A stretch of DNA of 64,000 nt from an uncultured Candidatus Binatia bacterium (GCA_965220195.1 CBDCPK010000002.1:42435-106434); one strand, 5' to 3'; shown: positions 44,260-60,847, counted from the first letter of the stretch. Numbers and translations: made by a program. The notes: generated by a model from the letters alone, not told the origin.

Positions 44260-44660
44260 ATGAAACACTATATTTTTTTGGCGCTCCTGACCTTCACCGT
44301 TAGCCCGGCTTTCGTTCACCCCGGCCGCTCACGTGATCGAGCAGCCCCCGGCCGCTCCTGCTGCGGGCCTGAGCGGTGTCCCCCGCATCATAGATGCGGG
44401 GGACACCCTGGAAGTCGCTGGGCAGAAAGTGCGGTTACAGGGGATTGACGCACCCGAATCCGCACAAACCTGCCGCCACCCCGGCGGGCAGGGTGAACGT
44501 AAACGCCTGGCTCGTGCGCCACGGCTACGCGCTCGCCTATCGGCGCTATTCAACCAAGTATATCCCCGAGGAAGACCAGGCCAAGGCCGCCCCGGCCGGT
44601 ATCTGGGCCGGGGAGTTTGTGCCGCCGTGGGATTGGCGGCGGGGAAAACGGCTGCCCTAG
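44260..44660 (+). pseudogene. staphylococcal-nuclease-like (thermonuclease) gene, frameshifted with internal deletion
   Basis: Signal peptide in frame 1. IIDAGDTLEV.GQKVRLQGIDAPES in frame 2. VNAWLVRHGYALAYRRYS...GIWAGEFVPPWDWRR in frame 3. Confidence 0.7.
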
Positions 44661-44872
44661 GCGGGTGAACAGGACTTGCCGGAGTGGAACGGGAACACCT
44701 GGGCAAGGACAAGAAGAATCCTGTCAGCGATGCACCTCTGCCGAGTCGGGCGGGTGACTCACTCCCGCCAAAACCTCCGTCCCGCCTCCGGTTTTGTCAG
44801 TCGTTCAAACAACCAGTGCGGGGGCCTTTCTCCTCTACGGGGGAACCGGGCGCGGGGCGGGGCGGAGCAATG

Positions 44873-44922
44873 TTTTTTGCCCTGAAGGGCCGGGCTCTGG
44901 TGAGCCCTTCAGGCTCAAAAAA
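44873..44922 (+). repeat. AT-stem hairpin H2, copy 6
   Basis: ttttttgccctgaaggg / loop ..ctGGTGAG / cccttcaggctcaaaaaa, located 25 nt upstream of the 44947 pseudogene. Confidence 0.7.
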
Positions 44923-44946
44923 CGATGTTGGAGGAGGGAGAGCCCC

Positions 44947-45114
44947 ATGAGACAGCAGGAAGAACCGAACATCCAGGGCGGGGACCGAATGCGGCAAATG
45001 GAGCTGTCCGCGCAGACCCGGGACGCTGAATAGCAACGCAAATGGCTGATGGAGAAGCGCAAGCCAGCAAAGGGCCGGCGCAAGCGCGGGCCGGAAAGCC
45101 TGAAACTCTTCTAA
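44947..45114 (+). pseudogene. paralog of the small basic protein at 59863, with an in-frame TAG
   Basis: MRQQEEPNIQGGDRMRQMELSAQTRDAE, stop, QRKWLMEKRKPAKGRRKRGPESLKLF. CAG in the 59863 copy is TAG here. It is followed by a remnant of the 60465 gene start (MPSTVIGVYAD), cut off by the kef 3' end. Confidence 0.6.
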
Positions 45115-45205
45115 GAGCACACCGCATGGATGGAGGCGGGAGAGCCATGCCCTCTACCGTCATCGGCGTGTACGCAGACCATAGTGAGCCACCTGTGCGC
45201 CCGGT

Positions 45206-46843
45206 TCAATCTGGATGGCGCTCGCCGCCCGTCTGGGGCGGGCCGCGTCGCGCCGTCCGCGCGGCCACATCGGCGGCAAATCCCGCCCCCGCCTCCGCCA
45301 AGACATTGAAGACGATGGAGGCCCCGGCCTGTTCCAGCGCCTCCCCCTCATCGGGAAACCGGACGGCCGCCGCGATCTGCCCGTCGAACGCGGCGGCCGT
45401 GATCTGGGCGAGCACGGCATGGGTGGCGGTGAGATGCGGCAGCGCCAGCAGCACGAGCGTGAGGGTGTGGGTGGTCTGCACGCGCTCCCAGAAGTCCGCC
45501 TCGCCGGGATCGCCCAGCACCACGTGGCGGCCGGCGGCCCGCTGGCGGTGCACCGTGTCCGGGTCGTGGTCTATGCCGATGACGGTCCCGCCGTGCAGCG
45601 GCTGCAGATGGTCGTAGGCGGCGGTGCCGAGGCGGCCCATGCCGATGATGGCGATGGTCGCGCCGCCGATATCGAGCGGTTGGTCGTCGGGGAGGCGGGC
45701 GGGGCGTTCCAGGCCCGTCCACGTCGGGCGGTGCCGGTCATAGAGGCGTTGGGCGGCGTCGTTCAGCACGGCGGCAAGGGTAAACGACAGTGCCAGCGCG
45801 ATGGCGAACACGATCAGCCAGTGGGCCTCAAGCCAGCCGCCCGCCACCCCGGCGGCCCCCACGATGAGCCCGAACTCGCTGTAGTTGGTCAGGTTGAGCG
45901 ACGCGAACAAGGCGGTTCGCGCCCGCAGCTTGAATCCGACGAACAGCCCGAAGAAGAGCGCCGCCTTCACCAGGACGAACGGGGTCAGGGCCACGCCGGC
46001 CAGCACCGCCTCCAGCGTGAGCGGGCCGGACAGCCCGATGGACAGGAAGAAGCCGAGCAGGAACAGGTCCTTGAACCCGAGCATCGTCTTGGCCAGCTCG
46101 TCCGCCTTCTCGTGGCTGGCGACGAGCACGCCGAGGATGAGCGCGCCCACGTCGCCCTTCAGCCCGACCAGCTCGAAGAGCTCTGCCCCACCCAGGGCGA
46201 GGAGCAGGGCATATAAGACCAGGAGTTCTCCGTGGCCCACCCACGCAAGGACGCGGGTCAGCAGCGGGCGCACCGGCAGGAGCAGCACCACCAGCAGCGC
46301 CCACGGGCTGGGCCACTGGCCCACTGAGGCCGCGAGAAAGAGGACCGCGACCACATCCTGCACGACGAGAATGCCGACCGCGATGCGCCCATGCAGCGCC
46401 GCGGTCTCCCCTTTCTCCTCCAGCACTTTCACGACGAAGACCGTGCTGGAAAAGCTCAAGGCGAAGGCGATCAACAGGGAGCGGGACAGGTCGAGACCAG
46501 AGAGCAAGGGGGTGCCCAGGAGCGCCAGCAGAGAGAGGGCGGGGCCGAAGAGCCCGACGACCAGCGCCATATGGAGGCCCGTGACGGCCCACACCTGCGG
46601 GCGGGCGAAGGTGCGCGGACTGAGCTTGAGGCCGACGGTGAACAGCAGCAGGGTGATGCCGAGGTCCGCCAGTTTTCGCAGCACGTCCCCACTGGTGACG
46701 CCCCAGAGGTTGAGCGCGAACCCGGCGGCGAGGAAGCCGACCAAGGGCGGCAGCCCGACGGTCCGGGCGACCAGGCCCAGGCCGAACGCCACGGCGATCC
46801 AGGTCACGTCTCCCAGGGCGATGGCGAGTAGCGTGAAGTCCAT
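45206..46843 (-). CDS. Kef-type cation:proton antiporter (CPA2) with C-terminal TrkA-N/RCK domain
   Basis: About 12 TM helices, then the Rossmann motif IAIIGMGRLGTAAYDHL. Confidence 0.9.
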   Translation of the reverse strand: MDFTLLAIALGDVTWIAVAFGLGLVARTVGLPPLVGFLAAGFALNLWGVTSGDVLRKLADLGITLLLFTVGLKLSPRTFARPQVWAVTGLHMALVVGLFGPALSLLALLGTPLLSGLDLSRSLLIAFALSFSSTVFVVKVLEEKGETAALHGRIAVGILVVQDVVAVLFLAASVGQWPSPWALLVVLLLPVRPLLTRVLAWVGHGELLVLYALLLALGGAELFELVGLKGDVGALILGVLVASHEKADELAKTMLGFKDLFLLGFFLSIGLSGPLTLEAVLAGVALTPFVLVKAALFFGLFVGFKLRARTALFASLNLTNYSEFGLIVGAAGVAGGWLEAHWLIVFAIALALSFTLAAVLNDAAQRLYDRHRPTWTGLERPARLPDDQPLDIGGATIAIIGMGRLGTAAYDHLQPLHGGTVIGIDHDPDTVHRQRAAGRHVVLGDPGEADFWERVQTTHTLTLVLLALPHLTATHAVLAQITAAAFDGQIAAAVRFPDEGEALEQAGASIVFNVLAEAGAGFAADVAARTARRGPPQTGGERHPD

Positions 46844-47014
46844 GGCGTGGTTGGGAGGCAGGACGGGCGCGTCATTTGACGGAAGCGGAAGATGCAGGCT
46901 GGACGGTTGTCTTCCTCCGGCATCCGACTCTGTCCATCAACTAGAGGATGACAGGGAAGCAATCAAGAGGGGGGTTGCCCTCTTCCGCCTCAATCCAGGC
47001 CAATTGACCTGGGC

Positions 47015-47030
47015 GTTAATTATAATTAAC
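47015..47030. promoter_or_regulatory. perfect 16-bp palindrome GTTAATTATAATTAAC with embedded TATAAT, 9 nt upstream of the toxin GTG
   Basis: Read directly from the sequence. This is the typical position for a TA autoregulatory operator/promoter. Confidence 0.5.
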
Positions 47031-47038
47031 CTATCCAG

Positions 47039-47356
47039 GTGGAATATGGGACCCGCACGCTTGAATTGGCTGACGGCAGAGTTCCCTTTGAAGAATGGCT
47101 GAACGGCCTTCGCAACCCGAGCACGAAGGCGCGCATCCTTGCCGCGGTCAGCAAGATGTCGGGCGGGAACTTCGGCGGCGCAAAGTCTCTTAAAGGAGTC
47201 CCGGCATTGTTTGAGTATCGCATCGACGTCGGTCCCGGGTACCGGATATATTACCGTGTCCGTGGTCGAACGGTCGTCTTACTGTGGGGCGGGACCAAGC
47301 GCACCCAAACGCGCGACATTGAACGAGCGCGCACTTTGGCACGGCTGCTGGACTAA
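47039..47356 (+). CDS. RelE/ParE-superfamily addiction module killer protein (HigB-like)
   Basis: ...ARILAAVSKMSGGNFGGAKSLKGV..LFEYRIDVGPGYRIYY......VVLLWGGTKRTQTRDIERA matches the killer-protein family pattern. GTG start. Confidence 0.85.
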   Translation: MEYGTRTLELADGRVPFEEWLNGLRNPSTKARILAAVSKMSGGNFGGAKSLKGVPALFEYRIDVGPGYRIYYRVRGRTVVLLWGGTKRTQTRDIERARTLARLLD

Positions 47357-47368
47357 GGAGGAGATAGA

Positions 47369-47668
47369 ATGGCAGGTGCAACGACGAGAGCATTTGATGT
47401 CGCCGCCCACCTCGGCAGCCCCGAGGAGATCGCCGCGTACTTGGACGCCGTTCTGGAAGAAGGAGATGACAAGCTCTTGCTGGTGGCGCTGCGCACTGTT
47501 GTCAAATCCAAGGGGTTTACCACGGTCGCCCAAGGAGCGGGGTTACGCCGCGAGACCTTGTACCAGTCCTTCTCGGCAGACGGGAATCCCCGGCTGTCCA
47601 CCTTGAGCGGGGTGCTCGGGCAGTTGGGCATGCGGCTCAGCGTGACCCCACAGGCGAAAAGCGCCTGA
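47369..47668 (+). CDS. addiction module antidote protein (HigA family)
   Basis: FDVAAHLGSPEEIAAYLDAVLEEGD...GFTTVAQGAGLRRETLYQSFS.DGNPRLSTL is the typical antidote HTH. Confidence 0.85.
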   Translation: MAGATTRAFDVAAHLGSPEEIAAYLDAVLEEGDDKLLLVALRTVVKSKGFTTVAQGAGLRRETLYQSFSADGNPRLSTLSGVLGQLGMRLSVTPQAKSA

Positions 47669-47758
47669 GCGGGTCCTGCTCCTTTTGGGGGTCTAGTGTG
47701 GGGGCTGGCCCACGGCACATAAACGCTGTTATGAGTCATAGGAAGCGGGGAGGGCAGG

Positions 47759-48751
47759 ATGGACACAGCGATAGCGAAAGCCGCCCCGGCCGGGGGGACA
47801 GTCCCGGCCCGGATTGCGGCCGGCGTGACGCCGGCGCTCTTTGCCGAGACGCGCCAGGGCGCACAGCGGTTTTGGGAGTTCTTTGGGGCCAATATCCGCA
47901 ATGCCAATACCCGGATGGCCTATGTCACGGCGGCCTACCGCTTCGCGGACTGGTGCGAGGGGCGGGCTCTCGCCTTGGGGCAGGTCGAGCCCCTGCATGT
48001 CGCCCGCTACATCGAGCAGCTCGGGCGGGCGTATGCGCCGGCCACGGTGAAGCAAAATCTGGCCGCCTTGCGCCAGCTCTTTGACTGGCTCGTCGTGGGC
48101 CAGGTCCTGCGCAGTAATCCGGCGGCCGCGGTGCGCGGGCCGAAACAGGTGGTGAAAACGGGGAAGACCCCCGTGTTGACGGCCGCCGAGACGCGCCGCT
48201 TGCTCGACAGTATCGACCCATCCACGTGCATAGGGTTGCGAGATCGCGCGCTGCTGAGCCTGATGGTGTACGGCTTTGCGCGGGTGAGCGCGGCGCTGGC
48301 GATGCGGGTGGCGGACTATTACACCCAGGGCAAGCGGTCCTACTTCCGGCTGCACGAGAAGGGCGGCAAGTATCTGGTCATTCCCGCGCATCATAGGGCG
48401 CAGGCCTGGACGGATGCATATATCGACCGGGCGGGGCTGGCGACCGACCCGAAAGGGCCGTTGTTTCCGTCGGCCGGCCGCCGGCGGGGGAGCGACCGCC
48501 TCACCAGGCGGGCGATGGACCGGACCGATGCGTTGAAGATGATTAAGCGGCGCGCGCAGCGGGCGGGCTTGCCGGCGGAGGTGTGCGCGCACAGCTTCCG
48601 GGGGACGGGCATTACCGAATATCTGCGGGCCGGGGGTACGCTGGAGACGGCGGCGCGGATTGCCGGGCATGAATCGACCCGCACGACGCAGCTCTACAAC
48701 CGCCTGCCGGACGAGGTCTCGCTGGATGAGATCGAGCGGATTCATATCTAG
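47759..48751 (+). CDS. tyrosine-type site-specific recombinase/integrase
   Basis: 330 aa. SAM-like N-domain, catalytic region with GLRDRALL, HSFRGTGIT and HESTRTTQLY. Full-length relative of the fragments at 17985 and 19548. Confidence 0.9.
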   Translation: MDTAIAKAAPAGGTVPARIAAGVTPALFAETRQGAQRFWEFFGANIRNANTRMAYVTAAYRFADWCEGRALALGQVEPLHVARYIEQLGRAYAPATVKQNLAALRQLFDWLVVGQVLRSNPAAAVRGPKQVVKTGKTPVLTAAETRRLLDSIDPSTCIGLRDRALLSLMVYGFARVSAALAMRVADYYTQGKRSYFRLHEKGGKYLVIPAHHRAQAWTDAYIDRAGLATDPKGPLFPSAGRRRGSDRLTRRAMDRTDALKMIKRRAQRAGLPAEVCAHSFRGTGITEYLRAGGTLETAARIAGHESTRTTQLYNRLPDEVSLDEIERIHI

Positions 48752-48761
48752 GGCGGGGAGC

Positions 48762-48944
48762 GGGAAGGTGGCGGGCAAGGCCCCGCGCCCTTTTTTTTCT
48801 GCCTGCCTGGCTCTTGCCAGTCTAGCAAAAAGAATCCACAGTCAAGGGTACACTCCGCTGCGCTCCGCCGCTTCGCGGCCCTGGACTGCGGAGCCGCTTT
48901 TTTTGCTTTCCGGGTGAGCACATTTCGGCCGGAAGGAGGACCGT
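48762..48944 (+). promoter_or_regulatory. leader element copy L1 between int and S6
   Basis: Hairpin GTCAAGGG(48841-48)/CCCTGGAC(48879-86). Competing stem GCTCCGC(48862-68)/GCGGAGC(48888-94) followed by T7 (48898-904). Stem CTTTCCGG(48906-13)/CCGGAAGG(48929-36) covers the SD. Confidence 0.55.
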
Positions 48945-49199
48945 ATGGAAACTGAAATCATCGCTATGTGGGCGCAGGTCTTCGCAACGCTCGTCGTGGG
49001 CTTGGTGCAATGCGGCCTCATTGCCTGGGGCTTGCGGCGCATGGGCATAGCTTCGGCCGAGCGCAACCGGCAACTGGACGCGATGGAGGCCACCCAACGC
49101 GAGCAGAGCCGTACGCAGGCGGAAGCGTTGGGCAAAATTGGGCAGGCCCTTGACCGGCAGGGCGAAGTCTTAGCCGAGCTGCTTCGGCGTACCGCCTAG
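48945..49199 (+). CDS. small single-pass membrane coiled-coil protein, family member S6
   Basis: 84 aa. MWAQVFATLVVGLVQCGLIAWGLRRMG, then ERNRQLD and the tail ALDRQGEVLAELLRRTA. Confidence 0.7.
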   Translation: METEIIAMWAQVFATLVVGLVQCGLIAWGLRRMGIASAERNRQLDAMEATQREQSRTQAEALGKIGQALDRQGEVLAELLRRTA

Positions 49200-49798
49200 C
49201 CCCTATCCCCAGCCGGGCGGGGTCGAGCCCGGCACAACCGTTTCCTGATAGCCCCGCGCGTAACCGAGCGGGGCGTTTAGCAAGGTCGGCGGAGCCGATT
49301 CTTTTACCCTCCAAACCTCCCTTGAGGGAGCGTTCAAGGGAGTCACTCTTTACCGATCTCCCCGGATTGCCCTGGCTACGACGCCAGCGCCCCCGGCTCA
49401 GTGGGACGAACCCACAGAGCCACCCAAGCCAGGAGCAGCGCCGGGAACCCCCCCCAGGACATGCCGCGCGGGTGGGCGGCTGGTGCCCAGGTCCGGCGGC
49501 CATCACGCCTGCCCCCGCCACCCCCGGCTTCGTGTCCAAAGCGACACCAAGCCACCCCCACGGGATACGTCCGCCCCCGCCCCCACCCACCAATGGACGG
49601 CGCGTCTCTCTCCGCTGGCGTGAGGTTGGACCCGCCAACCGCGTCAGGCAGAGCCTGTTACGGCTGCGAAATCAGGCGTCCGCCCGGACGAAGACCACGC
49701 CTCCCTGGCAACCCGCGCCAGGCAGAGCCTGTCACGCGTTGCACTGTCGGTCGGCCCGCAGACCGCCGCCGGCGCACGCGCCGTTCGGATGATTCCGA

Positions 49799-49839
49799 TT
49801 TTTTCCCGACTCCAGAGATGGGTGAGAGTCGGGAAAAAA
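49799..49839 (+). repeat. AT-stem hairpin H2, copy 1 (upstream of ssb)
   Basis: ttttttcccgact / ccagagatGGGTGAG / agtcgggaaaaaa. Confidence 0.75.
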
Positions 49840-49952
49840 TCTTGTGTTTTTGCTAGGGAAAGGAGGTGCAAGACAGCAGAAGTATTATCGAATCCTGGTC
49901 TTTGGTTTTGTCTCATCAACGGGCGTAAGCCCCCCAACAGAGGAGGTACGAC

Positions 49953-50336
49953 ATGGCAGCGCTGAATAAAGCGATGATTCTCGGGAATGTGGGCAACGAG
50001 CCGGAGGTCCGCCAGACACAGAGCGGACGGGCGGTGGCCAACTTTTCGGTAGCAACGACGGACGCGTGGGGTGAGGGAGAAGACCGCCAGGAGCGGACCG
50101 AATGGCATCAGGTGGTGGTGTGGGGGAAGCTGGCCGAGACCTGCGGACAGTATCTCACCAAGGGCCGCCAGGTCATGGTGGAAGGCCGGCTCCAGACGCG
50201 GAGCTATGAGGATCGAGACGGCAACAAACGGTCCGTGACCGAGATTATTGCCCAGCAGGTGCAGTTTCTCGGGGGGCGGAAGGAGAACGGTGCGGACGCC
50301 GGCGCCGGTACCCCGGCTGCCGATCTGGACTCCTAG
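49953..50336 (+). CDS. ssb: single-stranded DNA-binding protein
   Basis: LNKAMILGNVGNEPEVRQTQSGRAVANFSVAT...TEWHQVVVWGKLAE is the canonical OB fold. The short tail ends AADLDS, not the usual acidic DDDIPF-type tip. Confidence 0.95.
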   Translation: MAALNKAMILGNVGNEPEVRQTQSGRAVANFSVATTDAWGEGEDRQERTEWHQVVVWGKLAETCGQYLTKGRQVMVEGRLQTRSYEDRDGNKRSVTEIIAQQVQFLGGRKENGADAGAGTPAADLDS

Positions 50337-50418
50337 GACCAATAGGCAGGGCGCTGGCCCTGCCACCCCAGGCAGCGGCCAGGCCCACGACCTGGCCGCA
50401 TCGTCAAAGGAGGACGGT

Positions 50419-50781
50419 ATGAGCAACGTTGATCTCAAAGCTTTGGAAACCAGATGCCTACGGCGGGTGCAGGAGCAGGCGGCGCAGATCGAGATGAAGA
50501 CTCTTGAGGAACGGTGCGGGGCGATCTATGCCATCGCGCGCGACTGCGTCCCCGAGGAGGACGCCGAGCTGGTCTGGATTTTCGCCAATAACCTCATCGA
50601 ACTGGACACGACCGATTATGACGCACGGGAGGCCATGGAGGAGGACGACGGGATTCACCTGTCCCGCGGCATCCGCTACGCGCTCACCATGTACCTGTTC
50701 CACATCGCGGATGGCTGGATGACAAGCAGCCGTAGCGATAAATCTACCCTGGGCAGCCAGGCCCGCGCTTGGTCGCCCTGA
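50419..50781 (+). CDS. hypothetical protein
   Basis: 120 aa with RBS aaaggagga, directly downstream of ssb. Confidence 0.5.
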   Translation: MSNVDLKALETRCLRRVQEQAAQIEMKTLEERCGAIYAIARDCVPEEDAELVWIFANNLIELDTTDYDAREAMEEDDGIHLSRGIRYALTMYLFHIADGWMTSSRSDKSTLGSQARAWSP

Positions 50782-51007
50782 GCGAGCGCCCCACCACCCC
50801 GCCAGTGGGGCGCGTTGCCAGGGTCGGTAGCTCTTACTACTGCATCCCGCCGGCCCCACCCTCCCAGACCGAGAAACCAGGCCAAAACCGCCGGTTTTGG
50901 CCTTCACCCGCAAAAACCGACCTCTATACGGGGCCGTAGCGGCCCGTAATCGGCGCGGTCCATACTAAGGCCCTCACCAAAGAATAGGCACTTGCAGGCC
51001 TGCCTGA

Positions 51008-51265
51008 TGTCGTTTTTGCGAAATCGGCCGCAACCTGAACCAACTCAGCCGGACTGCCAACCAAGGCGGGGTGGTCAACGGGGCCGACGTGCGGCGGGTG
51101 ATTAACGCGGGCCTCGTGCAGATGGAGGCCGTCAAAGGGCGGTATGACCAGGCGCTCGAAACGATAGTCAAGCGCGCCGTGGTGCCGTTATCCCAAGAGG
51201 CAGGACTGACCCGGCGCGGGCCGGCTGGCCCGCGTGAGATCCCCGCGCCGAAAAAATCAGCCTGA
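51008..51265 (+). pseudogene. mobC: MobC-like relaxosome accessory protein, N-terminally truncated
   Basis: EIGRNLNQLSRTANQGG is the hallmark MobC motif. The open frame begins just after a TGA, has no start codon, and lacks the N-terminal half. Confidence 0.6.
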
Positions 51266-51584
51266 ATCCGAGACCAGGATGCGGTACGCCTATCAGCAAG
51301 ACAGTCTCGCCGGCTTAGAGGACGCCCGGCAGACCCTCTACCATGCCGGGGTGAAGGCATACCGGGCGGCGGAGCGGGAGGAAGGGGCGGAACGGGAGCG
51401 CTGAGGGACGGCGGCCAGAAGCTGACAGGGACCACCCGCTGTCAGTACGCCATCGGGCCGCAGGCGGGCAGGAAGATACCCTTCCGTGGTTCTTATCCCT
51501 CTGAGTTTCCTGGGTTGCAATTGAGAAGCTCTCGTAGGGGGATTGCTTATCGCTTCCTTTGACGTTACCTGATGCTTGACATCT

Positions 51585-51602
51585 TGTCTCAAATTTGAGA
51601 CA
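51585..51602. promoter_or_regulatory. perfect 18-bp palindrome TGTCTCAAATTTGAGACA next to TTGACA (51576-81), 10 nt upstream of the toxin ATG
   Basis: Read directly from the sequence. Likely the TA operator. Confidence 0.5.
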
Positions 51603-51611
51603 GTTCCAGCC

Positions 51612-51953
51612 ATGAAAGACGTGCGGTTCGTGGGCTCCTCTCTCGACGACCTGCGCGCCTTTCCAAAAGCCCCCAAACAGGACCTGGGCCGTCAGATCGA
51701 GCGGGTCCAGCGCGGACTCGACCCGCTGGACTGGAAGCCGATGACGCAGGTGGGCCGCGGGGTCCGTGAGATTCGGATTCGCGACAAGGACAACAATTAC
51801 CGTGGCATCTATGTGACAAACATCGGCGAGGCCGTCTACGTGCTGCATGTGTTTAGGAAACAATCGCAGAAGACGCCGGCGCGGGATATCGAGAAGGCGA
51901 AGTCCCGGCTGAAGGCGCTTCGAGCACAGTTACGCAAAGGAGAGCGTCCATGA
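51612..51953 (+). CDS. RelE/HigB-like toxin (phage Gp49-like family)
   Basis: VRFVGSSLDDLRAFP...REIRIRDKDNNYRGIYVTNIGEAVYVLHVFRKQSQKTPARDIEKA. Overlaps the downstream HTH gene by 4 nt. Confidence 0.8.
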   Translation: MKDVRFVGSSLDDLRAFPKAPKQDLGRQIERVQRGLDPLDWKPMTQVGRGVREIRIRDKDNNYRGIYVTNIGEAVYVLHVFRKQSQKTPARDIEKAKSRLKALRAQLRKGERP

Positions 51954-52309
51954 AGATTCGCAGCTACCGGAGCGTCTGGGATGCTATCGCGGACAGTCCT
52001 GAAGAGGCGGCTCACCTCAAGCTCCGCGCTCAGCTCATGGATGCCATCAAGGCATACCTCGATGACGAGGGCATTACGCAGGCGGAAGCGGCCCAAAGAC
52101 TTGGCATCCCCCGTTCTCGCGTGAGCGAGCTGGTCAACGACCGGATCAGTAAATTCACCATCGACAAGCTGGTGGATATGGCGGCACGGGTCGGGCTGCA
52201 CACGGAGATAACCGTCAGGGGAGAGCAGCATCGTTCCGTATCGGCGGCCAGGGCGGTCTGGCCTGAGCCCGTCGGCGATACGGATGATCCATCCCTTCTT
52301 GACCGTTAG
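51950..52309 (+). CDS. XRE-family HTH antitoxin (HigA-like)
   Basis: ITQAEAAQRLGIPRSRVSELVNDRISKFTIDKLVDMAARVG is the typical HTH_XRE. Confidence 0.85.
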   Translation: MKIRSYRSVWDAIADSPEEAAHLKLRAQLMDAIKAYLDDEGITQAEAAQRLGIPRSRVSELVNDRISKFTIDKLVDMAARVGLHTEITVRGEQHRSVSAARAVWPEPVGDTDDPSLLDR

Positions 52310-52408
52310 GCCCAGCGGGCGGCGGACGGTATTCGCGGGGACGATAGCGCAGCCGAGGAATAGAACTACGCCCTGCGTGAGCGGGGCAACCGAACAGGAG
52401 CAACGGCG

Positions 52409-52777
52409 ATGCTGTACGAGTTCCCAGGCTACCATCACTGCGACTCGAAATGTGACGTGGAAATCGTCCGCGGCACAGGGCTGACGACACTGGTCATCTG
52501 TACCGAGTTGGAGAACAACCCCGGCACCAGCGTGACAAATGCGGCCGAGATTATTGCGACGCGTCTCTGCCAGGAAGACCCGACCATCGACCCCGAGGGG
52601 CTGATATGGGTCGAGCACTACCCGGAGCGTTCGGCTGGCCGTGGGCAAAAGTCCTACCCCGAGACATGGGACATGGTCGTGTTCACCCACCGAGCCGGTC
52701 GGACCTTCCGTCGTCCGGCGTGGCGACGTGTCTCGGCCGAGGAAGTGCAGACCATCCGCCAGAAGATTACGAGTTGA
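52409..52777 (+). CDS. hypothetical protein
   Basis: 122-aa ORF of ordinary composition. No domain recognised. Confidence 0.5.
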   Translation: MLYEFPGYHHCDSKCDVEIVRGTGLTTLVICTELENNPGTSVTNAAEIIATRLCQEDPTIDPEGLIWVEHYPERSAGRGQKSYPETWDMVVFTHRAGRTFRRPAWRRVSAEEVQTIRQKITS

Positions 52778-52848
52778 CCCTCACAGCCCAGGAGCAGGCA
52801 AACCGACACAGAGACCGTACGGATTAGGAAAGGCAGGAAATCGTGGCT

Positions 52849-53025
52849 GAGCACAATATCGATCCGCTCGGCCTCACAGACCCAGCCGGAAATCACGCCG
52901 ACCCCACTCTGAAACGAACCCGGCGCCAGGTTCCCCAACGTGGCTTGGCCCCAGACGGGTGAGGCTGAGAAGGCCGACAGGACAAACAGGGCAGCCGCCA
53001 TGAACTTGGCGCTATGGCGGGGCAT
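52849..53025 (-). pseudogene. 5' remnant of a secreted GVISGWVCEA-domain protein
   Basis: Signal peptide MPRHSAKFMAAALFVLSAFSASPVWG plus LAPGSFQSGVGVISGWVCEAERIDIVL. Homology then stops abruptly. Confidence 0.6.
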
Positions 53026-53205
53026 TCTTCGAGCCCAGCCAGGGAGGGCCGCATGAATGGCTGTAAGGCGGGCGAATCCCAAGGGCAGGGATACCGCCCG
53101 CACCATGCCACGCCGCCGGCCCCCAGGCGGTGGTGGCCAGGGGCTTCCATGCTGTTTCGATGCCCATCCCCCCTCGTTCAAGGGTGTCCAGAGTGTCCTC
53201 CCGGC

Positions 53206-53310
53206 TTAGGGCAGGAAGAGCAGGACAAGGACCAGGGTGACGACCACAATGAGGAACGCGATGGCAATCGCGTCGGCCCCTTGGGGATATTCCTTGGGTG
53301 CGTCCTTCAT
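53206..53310 (-). CDS. possible 34-aa hydrophobic peptide
   Basis: MKDAPKEYPQGADAIAIAFLIVVVTLVLVLLFLP with GGAGGAC 7 nt upstream. Below the ORF-track cutoff, so only weak support. Confidence 0.3.
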   Translation of the reverse strand: MKDAPKEYPQGADAIAIAFLIVVVTLVLVLLFLP

Positions 53311-53655
53311 GCTGCGTAGTCCTCCGGGGACAGCGGCGCCCCCGACCCCCTCCGGCCTGCCTCCCTCCGTCTGCTTACTCCATAATGGCCCGCCTGTCCA
53401 CCTTCATTTGACTAGGGGGGAGGACATATCTCCGTGCCCTCCCAGCGGACGCGGGTCGGGCGGGTGCCGGACCATGCTCACATAGCCGCCCGCCCGGCAA
53501 AGCGCGCCAGAACCGCTCCGCGAACCTGGCACGTTTGCTGAGGGCCTCGGCTCCAGAAGGCCCCGCCTGCCGGCCGCATCTCGCGCCAGGAAACCTGTCA
53601 CGGATGCTAAGGCCGTTGGCGGACTCAGCAGTGCGCCCTCCGGGCTTCTCTCTGA

Positions 53656-53694
53656 TTTTTTTCGGTCCGAGCGGTTGGTGAGAACCGAAAAAAA
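53656..53694 (+). repeat. AT-stem hairpin H2, copy 2 (upstream of ardC)
   Basis: tttttttcggt / ccgagcggttGGTGAGa / accgaaaaaaa. Confidence 0.75.
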
Positions 53695-53730
53695 TCATCC
53701 TTTGTTTTTAAGGGGAGAAGGAGGCGAAAA

Positions 53731-54627
53731 ATGAGCCAGGACGTGTACGCGAAAATCACCGCCCGTATCGTATCAGCCCTCAGAGAAGGGGTAGTGCCGT
53801 GGCATCAACCGTGGAACGCCGCCCAGGGCCGTCCACGTAATCTTATCAGCGGCAAGCCGTATCGGGGCATCAATATCTGGCTGCTGTCGGGACAAGGAGG
53901 CTCCCCATTTTGGTTGACCTACCGGCAAGCCGTGCAGATCGGCGGGCACGTCAAAAAAGGGGCGAAAGGCCAGACCGTCATTTTCTGGAAATTCCTGGCC
54001 CGGAAGGGCGGTGAGCAGGACGGCCGAGAGGACGGCGAGCAGGACCACAAAAAGCAGGCCGGCTACGCCATGGCGCGCGCGTATACCGTGTTCAATGCCA
54101 CGCAGTGTGTATTGCCGGAGGCATGGGCGGAGAAAGCCCAGGTGGGAGGGCCTGAGATAGCCCCGGCTCAAACAATCGCCGCGTGCGAACAGATTGTGGC
54201 GGAGATGCCGGGGCGACCGCACATCACGCACGGCGGGAATGCTGCCTTTTACCAGCAGGGGATTGACCAGGTGACGATGCCGGAGCCGGGCAGCTTCGAG
54301 GCCCCGGAGCTGTACTATTCGATCCTTTTTCACGAGCTGACCCACTCGACCGGCCATGCGGGGCGGTTGAATCGGGCGACGCTGGTGGACGCGCTCCGCT
54401 TCGGGGATACCAACTACAGCAAAGAGGAGTTGGTAGCCGAGATGGGGGCGGCGTTTCTGTGTGGGGTAGCGGGCATTGAAAACCGCACGGCAGACACCAG
54501 CGCCGGCTACATCCACGGGTGGCTGAAGAAGTTGAGCAATGACACGCGGCTGCTTGTGCAGGCCGCTGCCCAGGCCCAGCGGGCCGCGGATTATATTCTC
54601 GGTCTGGAGAGTCAGGCCGGGGAATAG
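53731..54627 (+). CDS. ardC: ArdC-like antirestriction protein (N-terminal ssDNA-binding domain plus zincin metalloprotease domain)
   Basis: ITARIVSALREGVVPWHQPW...GKPYRGINIWLL (DUF1738-type) and the HEXXH motif LFHELTHSTGH. Confidence 0.9.
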   Translation: MSQDVYAKITARIVSALREGVVPWHQPWNAAQGRPRNLISGKPYRGINIWLLSGQGGSPFWLTYRQAVQIGGHVKKGAKGQTVIFWKFLARKGGEQDGREDGEQDHKKQAGYAMARAYTVFNATQCVLPEAWAEKAQVGGPEIAPAQTIAACEQIVAEMPGRPHITHGGNAAFYQQGIDQVTMPEPGSFEAPELYYSILFHELTHSTGHAGRLNRATLVDALRFGDTNYSKEELVAEMGAAFLCGVAGIENRTADTSAGYIHGWLKKLSNDTRLLVQAAAQAQRAADYILGLESQAGE

Positions 54628-54720
54628 CCGCCTGTAGGCGGGCGGCGCAGCCGGGTCCGAAGAAACCGCCCCGCACCACCACCCCATGAACCGGGCGCAG
54701 CAGCCCAGAAGGAGCATCCT

Positions 54721-54969
54721 ATGAGCGTCTTAGCCATTGCCCCCGAGACCCTGAAACGCATGGCGGCAGCCATTCCTGTGGCAACCTACACGTGCCAGGC
54801 GTGCGCCCTCGCCGAAGACACCGACCTGTGCTTGGACCCCAGAGGGGAAGTGTGGGTGTGTGAAGGGTGCTATAGCGAAGCGGCCGAGCTGCACGGCTAC
54901 CAGGGCGCGCCGATCTCTATCAGCGACCTGCCCCGGCTCCTCGCTGAGCAGCCGGCCCCCGTCCGCTAA
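54721..54969 (+). CDS. hypothetical zinc-ribbon protein
   Basis: 82 aa with CQAC...CEGC. RBS agaaggagc. Confidence 0.5.
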   Translation: MSVLAIAPETLKRMAAAIPVATYTCQACALAEDTDLCLDPRGEVWVCEGCYSEAAELHGYQGAPISISDLPRLLAEQPAPVR

Positions 54970-55662
54970 GCCCGTCCCGCCCGGCTGGGGATTCCGCTCA
55001 GGCGAGATCCCCAGCCGGGTCCCACCCTTCAATCCGAGCGGCCCCCCCAGCGCGCGCCGTGGCCCTGGTTGCCGGGCGTAGCGCCCGCTGTTTTTGTCCC
55101 GCCCCCCCTGGGCGCGCGCTTCACCCCCCCGAGAGACACCCGGACTCACGCTGCTTGACCACCCTTCCGGCCCCCGTGCGCCGTGGACGAACCACCGCGC
55201 CCCCCCAGGACCCAAGGCGTCGGGCTGTTTGCGCACGGCGGAGCCGGGAACCCTCGGCCGGGGCGCTCGTCCCGGCGCGGGGACCCTGAGCGCGTCGGGA
55301 ACCCTCGTGCGCCCCGGCTCGTCCCGTTCCGCCATCAGCAGTGGCCCGACCACTCTTTACCAGGAGACCCCCCAGAACCTGCCGCGGGGGCGCGTGTCGG
55401 CCTGCCCAGGTCCGCAGGCCGTCATCACGCCCACGCAGCCCCCGGCTTCGTGTCCAAAGCGCCACCAAGCCACCCCCACGGGACAGGTCCGCCCCCGGCC
55501 CCACCCATCAATGGGCGGCGCGTCTCTCTCCGCTGGCGTGAGGTTGGACCCGCAAACCGCGCCAGAACGCGGCCCAGGGCGGCCACAACCTGTCACGGTT
55601 TCCGGTTTTCCACGCGCCTCCGTGATCGAAGGAAAGGGGGCCTCTCGGCAGGCTTTTGCCTC

Positions 55663-55706
55663 TTTTTTTTCAAACGGGAACGGGGGGTGAGCCGTTTGAA
55701 AAAAAA
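55663..55706 (+). repeat. AT-stem hairpin H2, copy 3
   Basis: ttttttttcaaacgg / gaacgGGGGGTGAG / ccgtttgaaaaaaaa. Confidence 0.75.
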
Positions 55707-55785
55707 GTGTTCTTGCGACTGGAATTGACCAGGCCATCCCGTAGCCGCCCCCGCGGTGAATAGCCGAAGCGAGAGGAGTGCCACT

Positions 55786-56118
55786 ATGCAGGTCAAACTG
55801 ACCACTGAGGGACCGGGCGAAATCTCGGTGTATGCCCCAGACATCGCGCAGACCGTCCGGTGTGTCATCCAGCGCGTTGATGCCCGCCACTGGCGGCTGT
55901 CCGCCCAGGACTGGAAAGCGCGGGCCTGGCACCATCAAGCCCTGATCGACATTTTCCCTGCCCAGGGGATGGCCCTCGTCCATGCCGGCGCCTTCTTGGA
56001 TCACCTCCGCCTGGCGACCCAAACCCAGCCCGTGCCCCCGGCCTGTTCCGTGTGTGGCTGGCGCGGCCCGCAGACCGCCGCCGGCACGTGCTACCAGTGC
56101 GCGGACCCGGATGCGTAG
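55786..56118 (+). CDS. hypothetical protein with C-terminal CxxC...CxxC
   Basis: 110 aa from the ATG after gagaggag. Ends CSVCGW...CYQCADPDA. Confidence 0.5.
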   Translation: MQVKLTTEGPGEISVYAPDIAQTVRCVIQRVDARHWRLSAQDWKARAWHHQALIDIFPAQGMALVHAGAFLDHLRLATQTQPVPPACSVCGWRGPQTAAGTCYQCADPDA

Positions 56119-56335
56119 CGCTGGGACGCCGCCCGCCCCGCCTGAGTAAAGGCGGGCCGCCCGGCCCCCGCTGGGTCCCACTTTGCTGGCGTGTCATCGA
56201 GTATCTCCGACACAGATTCCTGAGACGGGTAAATAGAACAGCTTGACGCGGTTTCCGCCCCCAGCCTGACCCGTCTGTCCGGTGTGTCAGCAAACGCACG
56301 TTTTCCAAGACCGGGCCAGCCACCTTGCCCGCGAG

Positions 56336-57004
56336 TCATTCATGGAAGAGGGCCGCGCCGGTGTCCTCGAAGTCTCGCTCAAGCACACCACAGGCTGCGC
56401 GACCACCTCCTGCACATCCCGCTTCCTCGCCGTCAGGGCAATAGGAGTCTGGATTCGTATGAATGATGAGTGCGGCCCCGTCTTCATCGAATATGGACAG
56501 TGGCCCGGCCGATAGCGAGATACGGGTCGTGAGCGTTATCAACGTGCCGCCGCCAAGCGGCTCGCCGTCTCGGTTGAAATCGAATCCCGATATATCGTCG
56601 ATATTGATATTGGGTAATTCTCCTGCGTGGTATGGGTGATTGCCATCCGGAGTCGTATTGCCATGACCCCCTGGATCGAAGTGGCCGCCGGCGGCACTAC
56701 ACGGTTCGCAGGCTCCGGTTTCGTGAATGTGCACGCCATGTTTGCCCTCTGTTAAACCGCGCCGCACTTGGATCACCACGACAACAATCTTGACCAGTTC
56801 ATCTGACGGGCGCTCCCGCAGGATCGCCTGTCCAATCCGCTTCAGTGAACCACACGTCCGCAAAGTAGCTTTCGCGGTTTGCTCGTCGATCACGGGAGTT
56901 TCCTCTTCCTCATCGACTTGAGCACTCGCCTGAAAACCCAAAAGACACACGAGCGTCATTGCCAAGATGCCACTCGCTCGCCGTATAGATTGAAGATATT
57001 CCAT
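56336..57004 (-). CDS. sodC: periplasmic Cu/Zn superoxide dismutase family protein
   Basis: Signal peptide, then GKHGVHIHETGAC, GGHFDP, HAGELPNI and ALIIHTNPD. Lower GC, on the opposite strand to its neighbours. Confidence 0.8.
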   Translation of the reverse strand: MEYLQSIRRASGILAMTLVCLLGFQASAQVDEEEETPVIDEQTAKATLRTCGSLKRIGQAILRERPSDELVKIVVVVIQVRRGLTEGKHGVHIHETGACEPCSAAGGHFDPGGHGNTTPDGNHPYHAGELPNINIDDISGFDFNRDGEPLGGGTLITLTTRISLSAGPLSIFDEDGAALIIHTNPDSYCPDGEEAGCAGGGRAACGVLERDFEDTGAALFHE

Positions 57005-57579
57005 GATTCTCCCCACGCCCGTTCCTAGATAAGTATCATCGCGGCGAACTATACCGGGCGGAGTGGAAGTGCACCAGCATCGAGAAGAAGACCCGAGCCG
57101 TCGCCCGGCGCTGGCCCATGGCTCAGGCGCTGCTCCAACCCGGTCGCCAATCGAACGTCATGGACATCTTCCTGCTCGCTCTTCAGCGCGCCTCTTGCCC
57201 GCTCTATGACACCAGCCTGTCTTGCCAGGAGTGTCCCTACTTCAGGCTGCCACACGGCGGGCGGCCGCGCCCACCGTTACAAAAATCGGCGTCCGGCACG
57301 GGAGCCGGACCGGCGACCAGGCCCGGCTCCCGCCGTCCCAACTCGCCGGTAGGCAAGGCTTAGCCAGGCCGCCCACTGCACGCGAGGCCGTCCCGGCAAA
57401 GCCGGAAGGCGGCCACCTGCGCACCCGCGCCAGGCACAGCCTGGCACGGCGGCGAACCCAGGCGTCCGCTCAGACGAAGACACAGCCTCCCTGGCAACCC
57501 GCGCCAGGCAGAGCCTGTCACGCGTTGCGCTGTCAGTCGGCTGCCATATGCGAGAGGCGCTTGCGCGCCATCCTCTCGA

Positions 57580-57618
57580 TTTTTCCCGGTCCGAGTGGGG
57601 GGTGAGAACCGGGAAAAA
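57580..57618 (+). repeat. AT-stem hairpin H2, copy 4 (upstream of HNH)
   Basis: tttttcccggt / ccgagtGGGGGGTGAGa / accgggaaaaa. Confidence 0.75.
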
Positions 57619-57655
57619 TCTTCTTTCTTTTTTCTGCTGAGAGGAGCGCGGGGCG

Positions 57656-58057
57656 ATGGCAAAACGGACACAGGGAATGAATTGGATCAGACGCGAAAAG
57701 CGGCTTGCCATCTACCTGCGGGACGGTCTGGCCTGTGTGTATTGCGGGGAGAGTGTCGAGACAGCCGCTCCGCTGACCCTGGACCATCTGCGACCCTACA
57801 GCAAGGGCGGGACGAACACGGCGACGAACTTGGTCACCGCGTGCCACCGGTGCAACAGCAGCCGGGGCAGTCGGACGGTCCGGGGCTTCTGCCGGGCAGT
57901 TTCAGCCTATCTGAATCATCACATTGGGGCGCAGGAGATCGAGCGGCATGTGCGGCGGTGCGCGTCCCGGAGGATTGATGTCCAGGCCGCGCGGACGCTG
58001 ATTGCGCGCCGGGGGAGTTGGGCGCAATGCCTCAAAAAGCAGGAGGGGCTGACGTGA
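57656..58057 (+). CDS. HNH endonuclease
   Basis: CVYCG...LTLDHLRPYSKGGTNTATNLVTACHRCNSSRG. Confidence 0.9.
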   Translation: MAKRTQGMNWIRREKRLAIYLRDGLACVYCGESVETAAPLTLDHLRPYSKGGTNTATNLVTACHRCNSSRGSRTVRGFCRAVSAYLNHHIGAQEIERHVRRCASRRIDVQAARTLIARRGSWAQCLKKQEGLT

Positions 58058-58194
58058 AGCAACTCAGCTTTTTTGACACGACCAGGGACGAGCTGGCCGA
58101 GATTCGCCGCTACGCCGAGCTGGAACAGCGGCTCGGCTTCACCCTGAGCATGAGCAGGAAGACCCTGCCGGAGATTACCGGCGTGGCGGTCTAG
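58054..58194 (+). CDS. possible 46-aa coupled ORF
   Basis: The GTG overlaps the HNH stop (GTGA). AGGAGGGG lies 5 nt upstream. Below the track cutoff. Confidence 0.35.
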   Translation: MKQLSFFDTTRDELAEIRRYAELEQRLGFTLSMSRKTLPEITGVAV

Positions 58195-58215
58195 CCACAG
58201 GGAGGAAGAGGCAAC

Positions 58216-58437
58216 ATGACGTGTGCAGATTGTGGAGCGCCGACCGAGATCATCAGCCGCCGCATTGGCTTCTTTGGCAAGGTGGATACTTACAGCCGCT
58301 ATTGTCGGCCCTGCCTCCCCTCTCACGCCAGCGAGGGCGGCTATACGCCCGAGGAGGCGCTGGCCATCTATGACGCATGTGTTGACGCGGTGAAGCGTGC
58401 CCAGGCCGCCCGTGCGCAGAAAGGGAAAGCCTCATAG
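58216..58437 (+). CDS. hypothetical zinc-ribbon protein
   Basis: 73 aa with CADCG...CRPC. RBS ggaggaagagg. Confidence 0.5.
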   Translation: MTCADCGAPTEIISRRIGFFGKVDTYSRYCRPCLPSHASEGGYTPEEALAIYDACVDAVKRAQAARAQKGKAS

Positions 58438-58633
58438 CCCGGCAACGGAAGCAAGACGGGCCGCGCTCCGCGTTGCGACTGCGAGGGAGTTTGATATGGA
58501 CCTGAGCAATGGGCATCTGAAAGCGATAGCCCCACGGGTGTGCGAGATATTGCGGGAGGAGGAGGGGGACTAGGCTCTCCCGCTGGTTGAGCGGCGGTCT
58601 GGTGGTGATGACGGAGCCACCAGACCGCCGGCA

Positions 58634-58762
58634 TTAGGACCCTTTGGCAGGAGCGTTGCCACGCCCGCCGCCCGACGGATTGCCCGTGGTTGAGGGCCAG
58701 TTCCCGCCCTTACTACTCCCCTTACCGCCCCCGCCGCCTTTGCCTCCACCTGATTTTCCCAT
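58634..58762 (-). CDS. possible 42-aa glycine/lysine-rich peptide
   Basis: MGKSGGGKGGGGGKGSSKGGNWPSTTGNPSGGGRGNAPAKGS, preceded by agaggagaaaaaacg. KGG-repeat-like. Weak support. Confidence 0.35.
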   Translation of the reverse strand: MGKSGGGKGGGGGKGSSKGGNWPSTTGNPSGGGRGNAPAKGS

Positions 58763-59760
58763 CGTTTTTTCTCCTCTCTTGGGAAATTTTGAGAGGAGGC
58801 ATACCCGGAAACGCCGGGTGCTGTCAACGGGACGCTGACCGTCACCATCAGGAGCCGTGTCGGGTCCCGCTTTCCGGCTCTTTGACGAGGGCCGCAAGCG
58901 GATTTTTCGCCGGTCATGGAAAATCCCCGGAACGGCCGTTTCCGCGTCACCCCGCCCGCAAGACAGCAGACCCCCCCCCGTGCCCCGCCGTGACCCTCAA
59001 GGCGGGCTTCCGCTTCTTTCTCATGCTCCCCCCGCCCCGGCGGGGCGCTCCCCCTCGTTCCGCCTGGACGCACCAGGCCGAACGACCCCCCAGGAGGAAC
59101 AAGGCGGGTCGGGCTGTTTTCCGCCTCACGCCCGGCCCTCGTCCCAGCCGGGCAGGAGCCCGCGCCCGGCTGGGAACCCTCGTGGGCCTAAGCGCTCGGC
59201 AGAAGCGGCCCTCCATGAACTCTTCACCTTCAAACCCCCATCCCCAATCTTTGGGGCGCAACCCCCTCACTCCCCCACGCTTTGGGGGAGGTTCGGCCCC
59301 CCTTCCTACTTGTCCTTCCCCCCTGGCGCGGGGGGAAGGACTGAACCGCAGCGCCCCCCAGGACGTGCCGCGGGGGTGGGGTGTCGGCCTGCCCAGGTCC
59401 GCAGGCCGTCACCCCGCCCCCGCCGCCCCCGGCTTCGTGTCCCAGGCGACACCAAGCCACCCCCACCATTCTGGCCAAGCCCCCCAAGACATGCCGCGCG
59501 GGCCAGCACGCTGGTGCCCAGGTCCGCGGCCATCACGCCCGCCCGCGCCGCCCGCCGCTCCGTGTACAGGGCCACACCGAGCCACCCCGAGCAGGAGGCC
59601 CCCGGAAGCCGGACCCGTCTCACCGCAGGGTAAACCGACTCAACCCACCGGCTTCCCCGGCAAAGCGCGCCAGAACCGCGCCGCGAACCTGGCACGTTTG
59701 CACAATGAGCGAGGCGTCAGGGGAAAGATACTGCCCGCCTTCGGCGAGGCGGTTTCTCGC

Positions 59761-59806
59761 TTTTTCTTTTCCAGGAGACAGGGGGGTGAGTCCTGAAAAA
59801 GAAAAA
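59761..59806 (+). repeat. AT-stem hairpin H2, copy 5
   Basis: tttttcttttccagga / gacaGGGGGGTGAG / tcctgaaaaagaaaaa. Confidence 0.75.
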
Positions 59807-59862
59807 ATGTCGGGTTTTATAGGGAAGGTGCAACGCAATCACGCAGAAGGAGGGAGAGCCCA

Positions 59863-60030
59863 ATGAGACCGCAGCCAGACACGAACATCCAGGGTGGGGA
59901 CCGAATGCGGCAAATGGAGCTGTCAGCGCAGACCCAGGACGCTGAACAGCAACGCAAATGGCTGCTGGAGAAGCGCAAGCCGGCCAAGGTGCGGCGGAAG
60001 CGCGAGCCGGAAAGCCTGAAACTCTTCTAG
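59863..60030 (+). CDS. small basic hypothetical protein (55 aa)
   Basis: RBS ggagggagag. Coding is supported by a protein-level-conserved pseudogene paralog at 44947. Confidence 0.5.
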   Translation: MRPQPDTNIQGGDRMRQMELSAQTQDAEQQRKWLLEKRKPAKVRRKREPESLKLF

Positions 60031-60062
60031 GCACACACCGCACAGAGGGAGGAGGGAGAGAT

Positions 60063-60389: not shown

Positions 60390-60464
60390 TGCCGACATCG
60401 AGCCCCGCGCGCCGGGGTTCGGGTGTGGGCATTGGCCCACCACCACACAGGAGGAGGGAGAGAC

Positions 60465-60665: not shown

Positions 60666-60847
60666 CCCCCGGTCGGGTAAACCTGCCTGTGATTCCTATC
60701 CTTTCTTGAGCGCAGCGGGGGCTGGTGTGAGCCGTCACCGGATCCGTCTCGTCAGCCAAATCGTGTGCGTTAAGCGTGGCTGTGGTAGCAGCGGCGCCAA
60801 ACGGCACCGGAATATCATGCTGCAAGACTCTTTTTCCCTATCCGTAT

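Follow-up and report, generated by a model that had tools for sequence, protein, structure and literature searches.

The stretch of DNA analysed here (the window) spans 64,000 nucleotides (nt) of an uncultured Candidatus Binatia bacterium (GCA_965220195.1 CBDCPK010000002.1:42435-106434). Its first part, at 1-44 kb, carries ordinary chromosomal genes, such as tad-type pilus genes, a TonB receptor and a MacAB-TolC type pump, and is followed at about 44.7-61.3 kb by an array in which nearly all genes lie on the + strand, separated by repetitive intergenic gaps of 400-1400 nt. Six related hairpins stand in this array, each upstream of a same-strand gene, as had been noticed in an earlier reading made from the sequence alone (the sequence-only reading). 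They are named hairpin D here, since each is the final part of a repeated upstream unit, and are numbered as units 1-6. The genes behind them encode SSB, ArdC, an HNH endonuclease, a 110-amino-acid (aa) open reading frame (ORF), a 55-aa ORF and a 28-codon ORF, which is a truncated copy of the 55-aa one.

All six hairpins listed by the sequence-only reading are present, as seen by reading the sites, by a scan for GGTGAG and by a covariance model, all of them on the + strand, with stems of 10-16 bp and loops of 13-17 nt ending in GGTGA(G). Unit 1 (44873-44922; 26.6 bits) is a decayed duplicate of unit 6, having a GC core of 10 bp and imperfect outer T/A pairs. Unit 2 (49797-49841; 42.3 bits) possesses a perfect 16-bp stem with the loop CAGAGATGGGTGA and lies upstream of ssb (49953-50336, + strand; PF00436, E = 3e-40), while unit 3 (53653-53697; 48.8 bits) precedes ardC (53731-54627, + strand), whose product has an ArdcN domain and a zincin-like peptidase domain. 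Unit 4 (55662-55707; 30.6 bits) is found upstream of the 110-aa ORF, which has no Pfam match, like the other small ORFs of the array; unit 5 (57578-57620; 49.2 bits) precedes the HNH endonuclease gene (57656-58057, + strand), and unit 6 (59761-59806; 30.2 bits), upstream of the 55-aa ORF, bears one C.A mismatch on the + strand, so that 15 of its 16 pairs are formed. From the end of hairpin D to the start codon, the distances in units 1-6 are 25, 111, 33, 78, 35 and 56 nt, respectively.

Regarding their distribution in the window, every GGTGAG (35 sites on the + strand and 20 on the - strand, 55 in total) was checked for a flanking perfect stem of at least 7 bp, and such stems were found only at 44881-44913 (10 bp), 49797-49841 (16 bp), 53653-53697 (14 bp), 55662-55707 (16 bp) and 57578-57620 (13 bp), with none at the 20 sites of the - strand. 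An unfiltered covariance model gave exactly six matches, all on the + strand and scoring 26.6-49.2 bits, with the next best below 20 bits on either strand, although all six window hairpins were among its training sequences. When folded as single-stranded DNA (ssDNA), the hairpins reach -10.7 to -16.0 kcal/mol (z = -3.5 to -7.1), and none of 200 shuffles was as stable.

The duplication that links units 1 and 6 takes in the start of the operon (44932-45182 and 59848-60500), with 88% identity between 44932-45149 and 59848-60065. In the unit 1 copy, a change of CAG to TAG shortens the small ORF to 28 codons (44948-45033), and the ORF that follows extends into the Na+/H+ antiporter gene at 45206-46843, which is on the opposite strand; the region has the appearance of a rearrangement or of the decayed end of another, older element. 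In the ssb unit, hairpin D is followed by a Shine-Dalgarno site and a GTG-initiated ORF of 20 codons (49866-49928) that ends just before the true ssb ribosome-binding site and may be a leader peptide or a relic.

Hairpin D is part of a larger module, which was absent from the description given by the sequence-only reading, as were the second conserved hairpin, the GC-rich repeats and the identity of the genes as the leading region of a conjugative element. The repeated unit measures about 150-400 nt and comprises one to three copies of a hairpin named motif A, small GC hairpins, hairpin D and, usually, a T-rich tract and a Shine-Dalgarno site; in most units, this tract and an AGGAGG-type site follow within 10-25 nt of hairpin D. 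Motif A is located 55-75 nt upstream of D and consists of GCGCCAG, a variable inner hairpin and CCTG(T/G)CAC, all within an outer stem, and it is frequently doubled, the copies being about 70 nt apart. On the + strand of the window, motif A is found twice in tandem in unit 2 (49634-49668, degenerate, and 49708-49742; each GCGCCAG...CCTGTCAC inside covarying outer stems), twice in unit 3 (53497-53539 and 53576-53608), once in unit 4 (55552-55603, with a long inner hairpin), twice in unit 5 (57420-57454 and 57494-57528) and once in unit 6 (59660-59702).

In three units, motif A is preceded by long hairpins whose loop is TGCCCAGGTCC. The GC-rich repeat block of unit 2 (49450-49647, + strand) contains a CCCCCCAGGA box, the long hairpin with that loop and a hairpin GGCTTCGTGTCC...GACACCAAGCC, and other copies of the block lie on the + strand at 55368-55565, 59354-59466 and 59480-59591. 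A GC-rich repeat of about 94 nt recurs in four copies upstream of units 2, 4 and 6 (49468-49561, 55386-55479, 59373-59466 and 59498-59591), and is also present in the relatives L001, L003, L025 and L027. Each copy contains a long covarying hairpin, whose loop is (TG)CCCAGGTCC, as well as another one, GGCTTCGTGTCC...GACACCAAGCC.

For a wider view of the family, ArdC relatives were fetched with their flanks from genomes and metagenomes, giving 954 kb of related loci, in which the covariance model found 32 copies of hairpin D, all on the ardC strand and one of them outside the training set. Taken with the window, all 38 model matches are on the gene strand and upstream of genes, and the hits whose context was checked stand at most about 115 nt upstream of a start codon. 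The fixed place before same-strand genes proposed by the sequence-only reading is thus borne out, and no scatter unrelated to gene starts was seen. The ends of a miniature inverted-repeat transposable element or insertion sequence were considered and rejected, as the copies are not scattered, share the gene strand (6 in the window and 32 in the 954 kb) and occupy orthologous positions before ardC.

The closest relatives are Candidatus Binatia metagenome-assembled genomes (MAGs), in which the same hairpin lies 23-36 nt before ardC and extra copies of D precede ssb, HNH, small ORFs and a PAPS-reductase-like gene. An exact look-up of the ArdC protein of the window in an assembly index gave no record. 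The more distant copies lack T-runs and A-runs, their stems being GC-rich, but they share the 13-nt loop SAG-N4-GGGTGA with the others, and motif A can still be recognised; one of them, on an Acidobacteriota contig, precedes a RadC/JAB-like gene, and others come from several contigs of soil metagenomes in which ArdC is about 50% identical. Across the family, the genes behind D encode SSB, ArdC, HNH, RadC/JAB-like and PAPS-reductase-like proteins and small ORFs, and they vary among related elements. In a scan of a genome collection with the D loop pattern, the matches listed were mostly due to chance, and an 18-mer from the Acidobacteriota-type unit returned only two new copies. The relative L002 (CBDCTF010000003.1, 42 kb), binned as Dehalococcoidia, is an element of the same type with an ArdC 75% identical and four D hairpins, its bin label reflecting either cross-phylum transfer or a binning error. 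Other ardC lineages have hairpins of their own: in L007-L011, from MAGs labelled Enterobacteriaceae, gggcttgtgtaa-loop-ttactcaagccc stands about 30 nt before ardC (e.g., L007 1659-1691), its inner stem differing among copies, and in further lineages (Frankia; L196, L218) a hairpin lies 22-48 nt upstream, so a hairpin immediately before ardC may be a general theme.

Among 28 distinct copies of hairpin D, changes on both sides are seen at all 13 stem pairs, with 92-96% of cells paired, and the covariation score is 0.83-0.88, compared to 0.25 for shuffles and at most 0.38 for slid registers. The outer stems of motif A are compensated as well (GCAAC/GTTGC, GCATC/GATGC, GCAAA/TTTGC, GTGCCCC/GGGGCAC and CAAG/CTTG), and its inner hairpin varies in length from 3 to about 30 nt. 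Because the stems covary and the spacing of motif A varies, hairpin D and motif A are folded single-stranded nucleic acids and not binding sites on double-stranded DNA, which upholds for D the earlier view of a base-paired RNA or ssDNA rather than a protein operator. The description of the hairpin itself had to be amended: GGTGA is the invariant core of the loop, but the family is better described by the 13-nt SAG-N4-GGGTGA than by an ending in GGTGAG, and the T-run/A-run stem thought to be shared by all copies is limited to one sub-lineage, being absent from relatives with GC-rich stems.

These data bear directly on the possibility that the units are double-stranded promoter-plus-operator cassettes governed by an element-encoded repressor and subject to zygotic induction, as in the CUP/ArdK/ArdR system of pKM101 or EGeRS2/Reg576 of p576, with the palindromes as operators. 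Repeated conserved upstream regions before several establishment operons are a hallmark of such systems (PMC6294495), helix-turn-helix proteins are encoded in the array (51950-52309 and 47369-47668), and motif A recurs at a spacing of about 70 nt. However, the stem sequences of D are wholly different among copies, yet complementary, and a double-stranded operator would not tolerate a spacing that varies, as it does between the conserved halves of motif A, from 3 to 30 nt. In addition, this explanation comes without a sigma-70-like promoter and does not account for the strand asymmetry of folding described below, and we consider it improbable.

Regarding promoters, a hexamer-pair scan found no sigma-70-like promoter near any unit, and as terminator-like sites follow some upstream genes (e.g., at 48870 and 55073), initiation has to come from the units. 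A sigma-70 promoter placed over D, with AAAAAT of the A-run as the -10 box, was rejected because its -35 position falls in the loop, where nothing resembles TTGACA; likewise, the sigma-54-like CTGGCAC...TTGC of motif A has 9-10 nt between GG and GC, compared to the 12 required.

Hairpin D could also be a terminator or insulator, or a recombination or shuffling signal marking cassette boundaries, like the PeSL of T4-type phages or integron attC sites, which seems very improbable. A small GC hairpin together with the T-run of D scores as terminator-like in three of the units, 2, 4 and 6 (49785, 55647 and 59743), but the ardC units have no such hairpin adjoining the T-run. An intrinsic terminator would have a GC-rich stem, a loop of 3-8 nt and a T-run immediately 3' of the stem; hairpin D itself has a loop of 13-17 nt and is followed by an A-run, and the terminator scan called no D hairpin, so an intrinsic terminator was discarded. 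Shuffling would suit the differing gene content behind the units of related elements, the joint duplication of units 1 and 6 with their genes and the presence of an integrase. Meanwhile, the R''/L''...L'/R' boxes of attC (RYYYAAC...GTTRRRY) are lacking when the sequences are read directly, the hairpins are 5' of ORFs, beside the ribosome-binding site, whereas attC sites lie 3' of cassette ORFs, and this place and the conserved loop indicate a role in expression rather than recombination.

The proposal that the hairpins do not belong to a described family agrees with the search of Rfam 15 (4227 covariance models), which gave no match at the gathering score over the whole window and, at E up to 1 over 44000-61500, only a chance-level match outside the hairpins, at 50762. 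A distant blastn search with the ssb unit (49400-50400) against the 72,556 plasmid records of PLSDB matched only the ssb coding sequence and returned no Bacillus plasmid.

The nature of the array is indicated by its relatives. In L151, L006 and L002, a MobC/NikA-like gene and one for a MobA/VirD2-type relaxase come after it on the same strand, and in L151 the genes for VirD4, VirB11, B10, B9, B8 and B6 lie beyond the relaxase, on the opposite strand. Predicted origins of transfer (oriT) are located directly upstream of the nikA/mobC-relaxase operon at 12858-12900 in L006, about 13090-13110 in L027 and 16234-16250 in L002. Just upstream of the mob operon, L006 has GGTATGGCAGGATACG and then an inverted repeat, which on the - strand reads as the inverted repeat (GCAACGTGT/ACAACGTTGC) followed by the adjoining TATCCTGC; the same octamer TATCCTGC is found on the - strand upstream of the mob operon in L027, and L002 has TATCTTGC. 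The site TATCCTGC of L006 and L027 fits the consensus for MOBP nick sites, (C/T)ATCCTG(C/T), which has an inverted repeat 5' of it (PMC3772185). A nick predicted on the - strand upstream of the mob operon means that the - strand would enter the array 5' to 3', and we infer from this oriT-like motif of the relatives that the array is a leading region, with the - strand transferred and serving as the template of the array genes, as in plasmid F.

In the window, a tyrosine recombinase (integrase) gene is located at the left end of the array (47759-48751, + strand), the same position as in relatives such as L149, and the element appears to be chromosomally integrated. As a DDE_3 transposase gene lies on the - strand at the right edge (63329-63898) and relaxase and secretion genes are missing from the window, the element is suggested to be truncated, and this copy may be a remnant.

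The two strands of the units do not fold equally well. Over the segment from -150 to +30 around D, the - strand is the more stable in 21-22 of 27 units, with a mean difference of -3.9 kcal/mol and a mean z of -3.37 compared to -2.34 for the + strand. Shuffles of the unit segments give equal values for both strands (-42.8 and -42.9), and random segments of the window show no bias (+0.65), whereas neighbouring coding DNA of the + strand has the opposite bias (+3.96 kcal/mol), its - strand folding better in only 10 of 52 segments. These modelled energies favour the template strand, which is the predicted transferred strand, as the folded species.

The genes of a leading region are the first to enter the recipient and carry much of the anti-defence arsenal of plasmids, as has been recognised only recently. 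To our knowledge, the way in which such genes are switched on before the DNA becomes double-stranded is understood only for enterobacterial promoters of the Frpo type. The reading that we favour, with somewhat less than even confidence, is that hairpin D and motif A constitute a new, sequence-unrelated family of modules active on ssDNA and functionally like Frpo/ssi. Such a cis-acting module, with D as its promoter-proximal part, would stand before every establishment or anti-defence operon of the leading region in a conjugative element of the MOBP type with type IV secretion and would act on the transferred single strand, here the - strand, the template of the genes. The hairpins would fold as this strand enters the recipient and jointly form an entry site for the host RNA polymerase, possibly also allowing complementary-strand priming; by creating this entry site on the incoming strand, they would let each early operon be expressed immediately and only transiently, as Frpo/ssi does for IncF and IncI plasmids. 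Recognition would then proceed through small hairpins with conserved loops or mismatches and not through a long stem that rebuilds -35 and -10 boxes. The candidate recognition features are the 13-nt loop, which is 5'-TCACCC-N4-CTS on the transferred strand, and the GTGACAG/CTGGCGC helix with its T.G wobble and A.G mismatch. In its broader form, which assigns a new class of initiation signals on ssDNA to the conjugative elements found in uncultivated phyla of soil (Binatia, Acidobacteriota and others), with one module of small hairpins before every anti-defence operon recruiting RNA polymerase or a primase to the incoming strand, the proposal is still more doubtful.

Several observations weigh against this interpretation. 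The 27 units are related by descent, so the figure of 21-22 overstates the number of independent observations. Wobble pairs were tried as a test of the folding strand and set aside: in D, G.T pairs occupy 19 cells on the - strand and 3 on the + strand, which is suggestive, but a single position of a single lineage accounts for 16 of the 19, and the outer stem of motif A has no bias (13 G.T and 12 A.C). A relaxase, type IV secretion genes and an oriT motif are all absent from the window, the transfer context coming from relatives, and the nick site is a predicted one. Moreover, -35 and -10 boxes are not rebuildable in any hairpin, and the region folds as several short hairpins and not as one long stem-loop. 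Finally, the D loop has a plausible partner at the RNA level, the 3' tail of 16S rRNA, a match that the ssDNA model leaves unexplained.

This last point leads to the main alternative, an mRNA leader, in which D, or the whole module, is part of the 5' untranslated region and the loop GGGUGA mimics a Shine-Dalgarno sequence, acting as a ribosome standby or recruitment site and as a stabiliser of the mRNA that would make the translation of early genes very efficient; we hold this to be possible, but somewhat less likely than the ssDNA reading. The D loops pair with a generic 16S 3' tail, assumed and not the host's own, at a mean of -10.3 kcal/mol, compared to -5.0 for random 15-mers, and 48% of them reach -10 kcal/mol or lower with that tail compared to 6% of random 15-mers. 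Almost every loop keeping GGTGA pairs in one register, GGUGA with UCACC. No conserved TCACC partner in cis, as for a pseudoknot, was found within 200 nt upstream or 150 nt downstream of D, so a partner of the loop must act in trans, as the 16S tail would. The T-rich tract and AGGAGG-type site close behind D also suit a leader, as do two + strand G.T pairs in the outer stem of motif A in L006 (9846), and an adaptation to efficient translation has been reported for leading regions (PMC13478746).

However, it is the antisense strand of the units that folds better, the reverse of what the flanking genes show, and 16 of 28 sequences carry a + strand C.A mismatch, equal to a G.T wobble on the - strand, at a pair that is Watson-Crick elsewhere. 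No promoter that would transcribe the module is seen upstream, the match to the anti-Shine-Dalgarno sequence was noticed post hoc with a 16S tail that was assumed and not read from this organism, and the conserved SAG on the 5' side of the loop, as well as motif A, would have no explanation. A long stem enclosing D, formed by an upstream pyrimidine stretch resembling an anti-Shine-Dalgarno sequence and the downstream Shine-Dalgarno site, is seen in some ardC and HNH units but does not exceed shuffles overall (mean z = -0.19; below -2 in only 2 of 27 units). A kink-turn in the D loop is doubtful, as the 5' side bulge has 2 nt compared to the 3 expected before GA.

Returning to the module proposed to act on ssDNA, signals that are specific to strand and orientation are well known from the ssoA of rolling-circle plasmids and the minus-strand origin of filamentous phages, in which hairpins with a conserved loop (CS-6 in ssoA), or two adjacent hairpins, are the place where host RNA polymerase starts an RNA. 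They are used for priming alone, with a single copy per replicon and no link to genes, and their conserved TAGCGT and RSB sequences are absent from the present units.

Frpo/ssi and two newer classes of ssDNA promoters are found before ssb, psiB, ardA and klcA, and they consist of a long stem with rebuilt -35 and -10 boxes (PMC11541004, PMC12672017). The units resemble those of IncF and IncI1 plasmids (and classes 2 and 3 of pESBL and F) in being repeated structured non-coding regions directly before ssb, anti-restriction and establishment operons, in having several copies per element and in folding strongly as ssDNA (PMC11541004, PMC12672017); the transferred strand as template would be a further likeness, predicted here from the relatives. 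Besides these similarities, there are differences: the present family has no sequence similarity to them, the PLSDB search having matched coding sequence alone, and instead of a long stem-loop with rebuilt -35 (TTGACA), -10 (TATAAT) or UP boxes, it is built of short hairpins in which a 13-nt loop and a mismatched helix are conserved. It is hosted by GC-rich members of uncultivated soil phyla, and the element is apparently integrated in the chromosome.

EGeRS1 of the pLS20 family, from Bacillus, is a region of 400-600 bp with many inverted repeats, no sigma-A promoter and a mechanism that is not known (PMC8708921). The likeness is functional and architectural only, as a conserved multi-hairpin region without a strong housekeeping promoter is repeated before ardC and other establishment operons. 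In pLS20, however, the transferred strand is the non-template one, which argues against an ssDNA promoter there (PMC8708921), whereas the predicted transferred strand is the template here. In addition, compared by description, the hosts belong to unrelated phyla, no motifs are known to be shared, and EGeRS1 is GC-rich relative to its plasmid, whereas D in the main lineage is an AT-rich island.

The CUP repeats of the IncN plasmid pKM101 also head establishment units of the leading region, where more than 400 bp are conserved before about seven transcription units (as cited in PMC6294495); they are thought to be double-stranded promoter and operator regions under ArdK and ArdR, with no covarying hairpins reported, and are set apart here by description. 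Structured repeats before establishment genes are thus already known as a general kind (Frpo/ssi, EGeRS1 and CUP), while the family and its architecture are new.

The ssDNA reading, if true, would show that early expression from ssDNA is widespread beyond Enterobacteria and that more than one architecture can serve for it; the covariance model would then be a searchable marker, in uncultivated soil bacteria, for leading regions and for new anti-defence genes. If the hairpins belong to an mRNA leader instead, they would be an unusual translational device, a Shine-Dalgarno mimic held in a hairpin loop, with a possible use for expression engineering in GC-rich hosts.

The array also contains two toxin-antitoxin-like pairs on the + strand (47039-47668 and 51576-52309), which are Gp49/HigB-like with HI1420-type or HTH_37 antitoxins. 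Outside the array, at 23753-28150, a protein of 1465 aa is encoded that consists mainly of leucine-rich repeats, which is unusual in bacteria, and its gene is flanked by transposase fragments (22999-23472, DUF4096) and a partial integrase (18122-18607).

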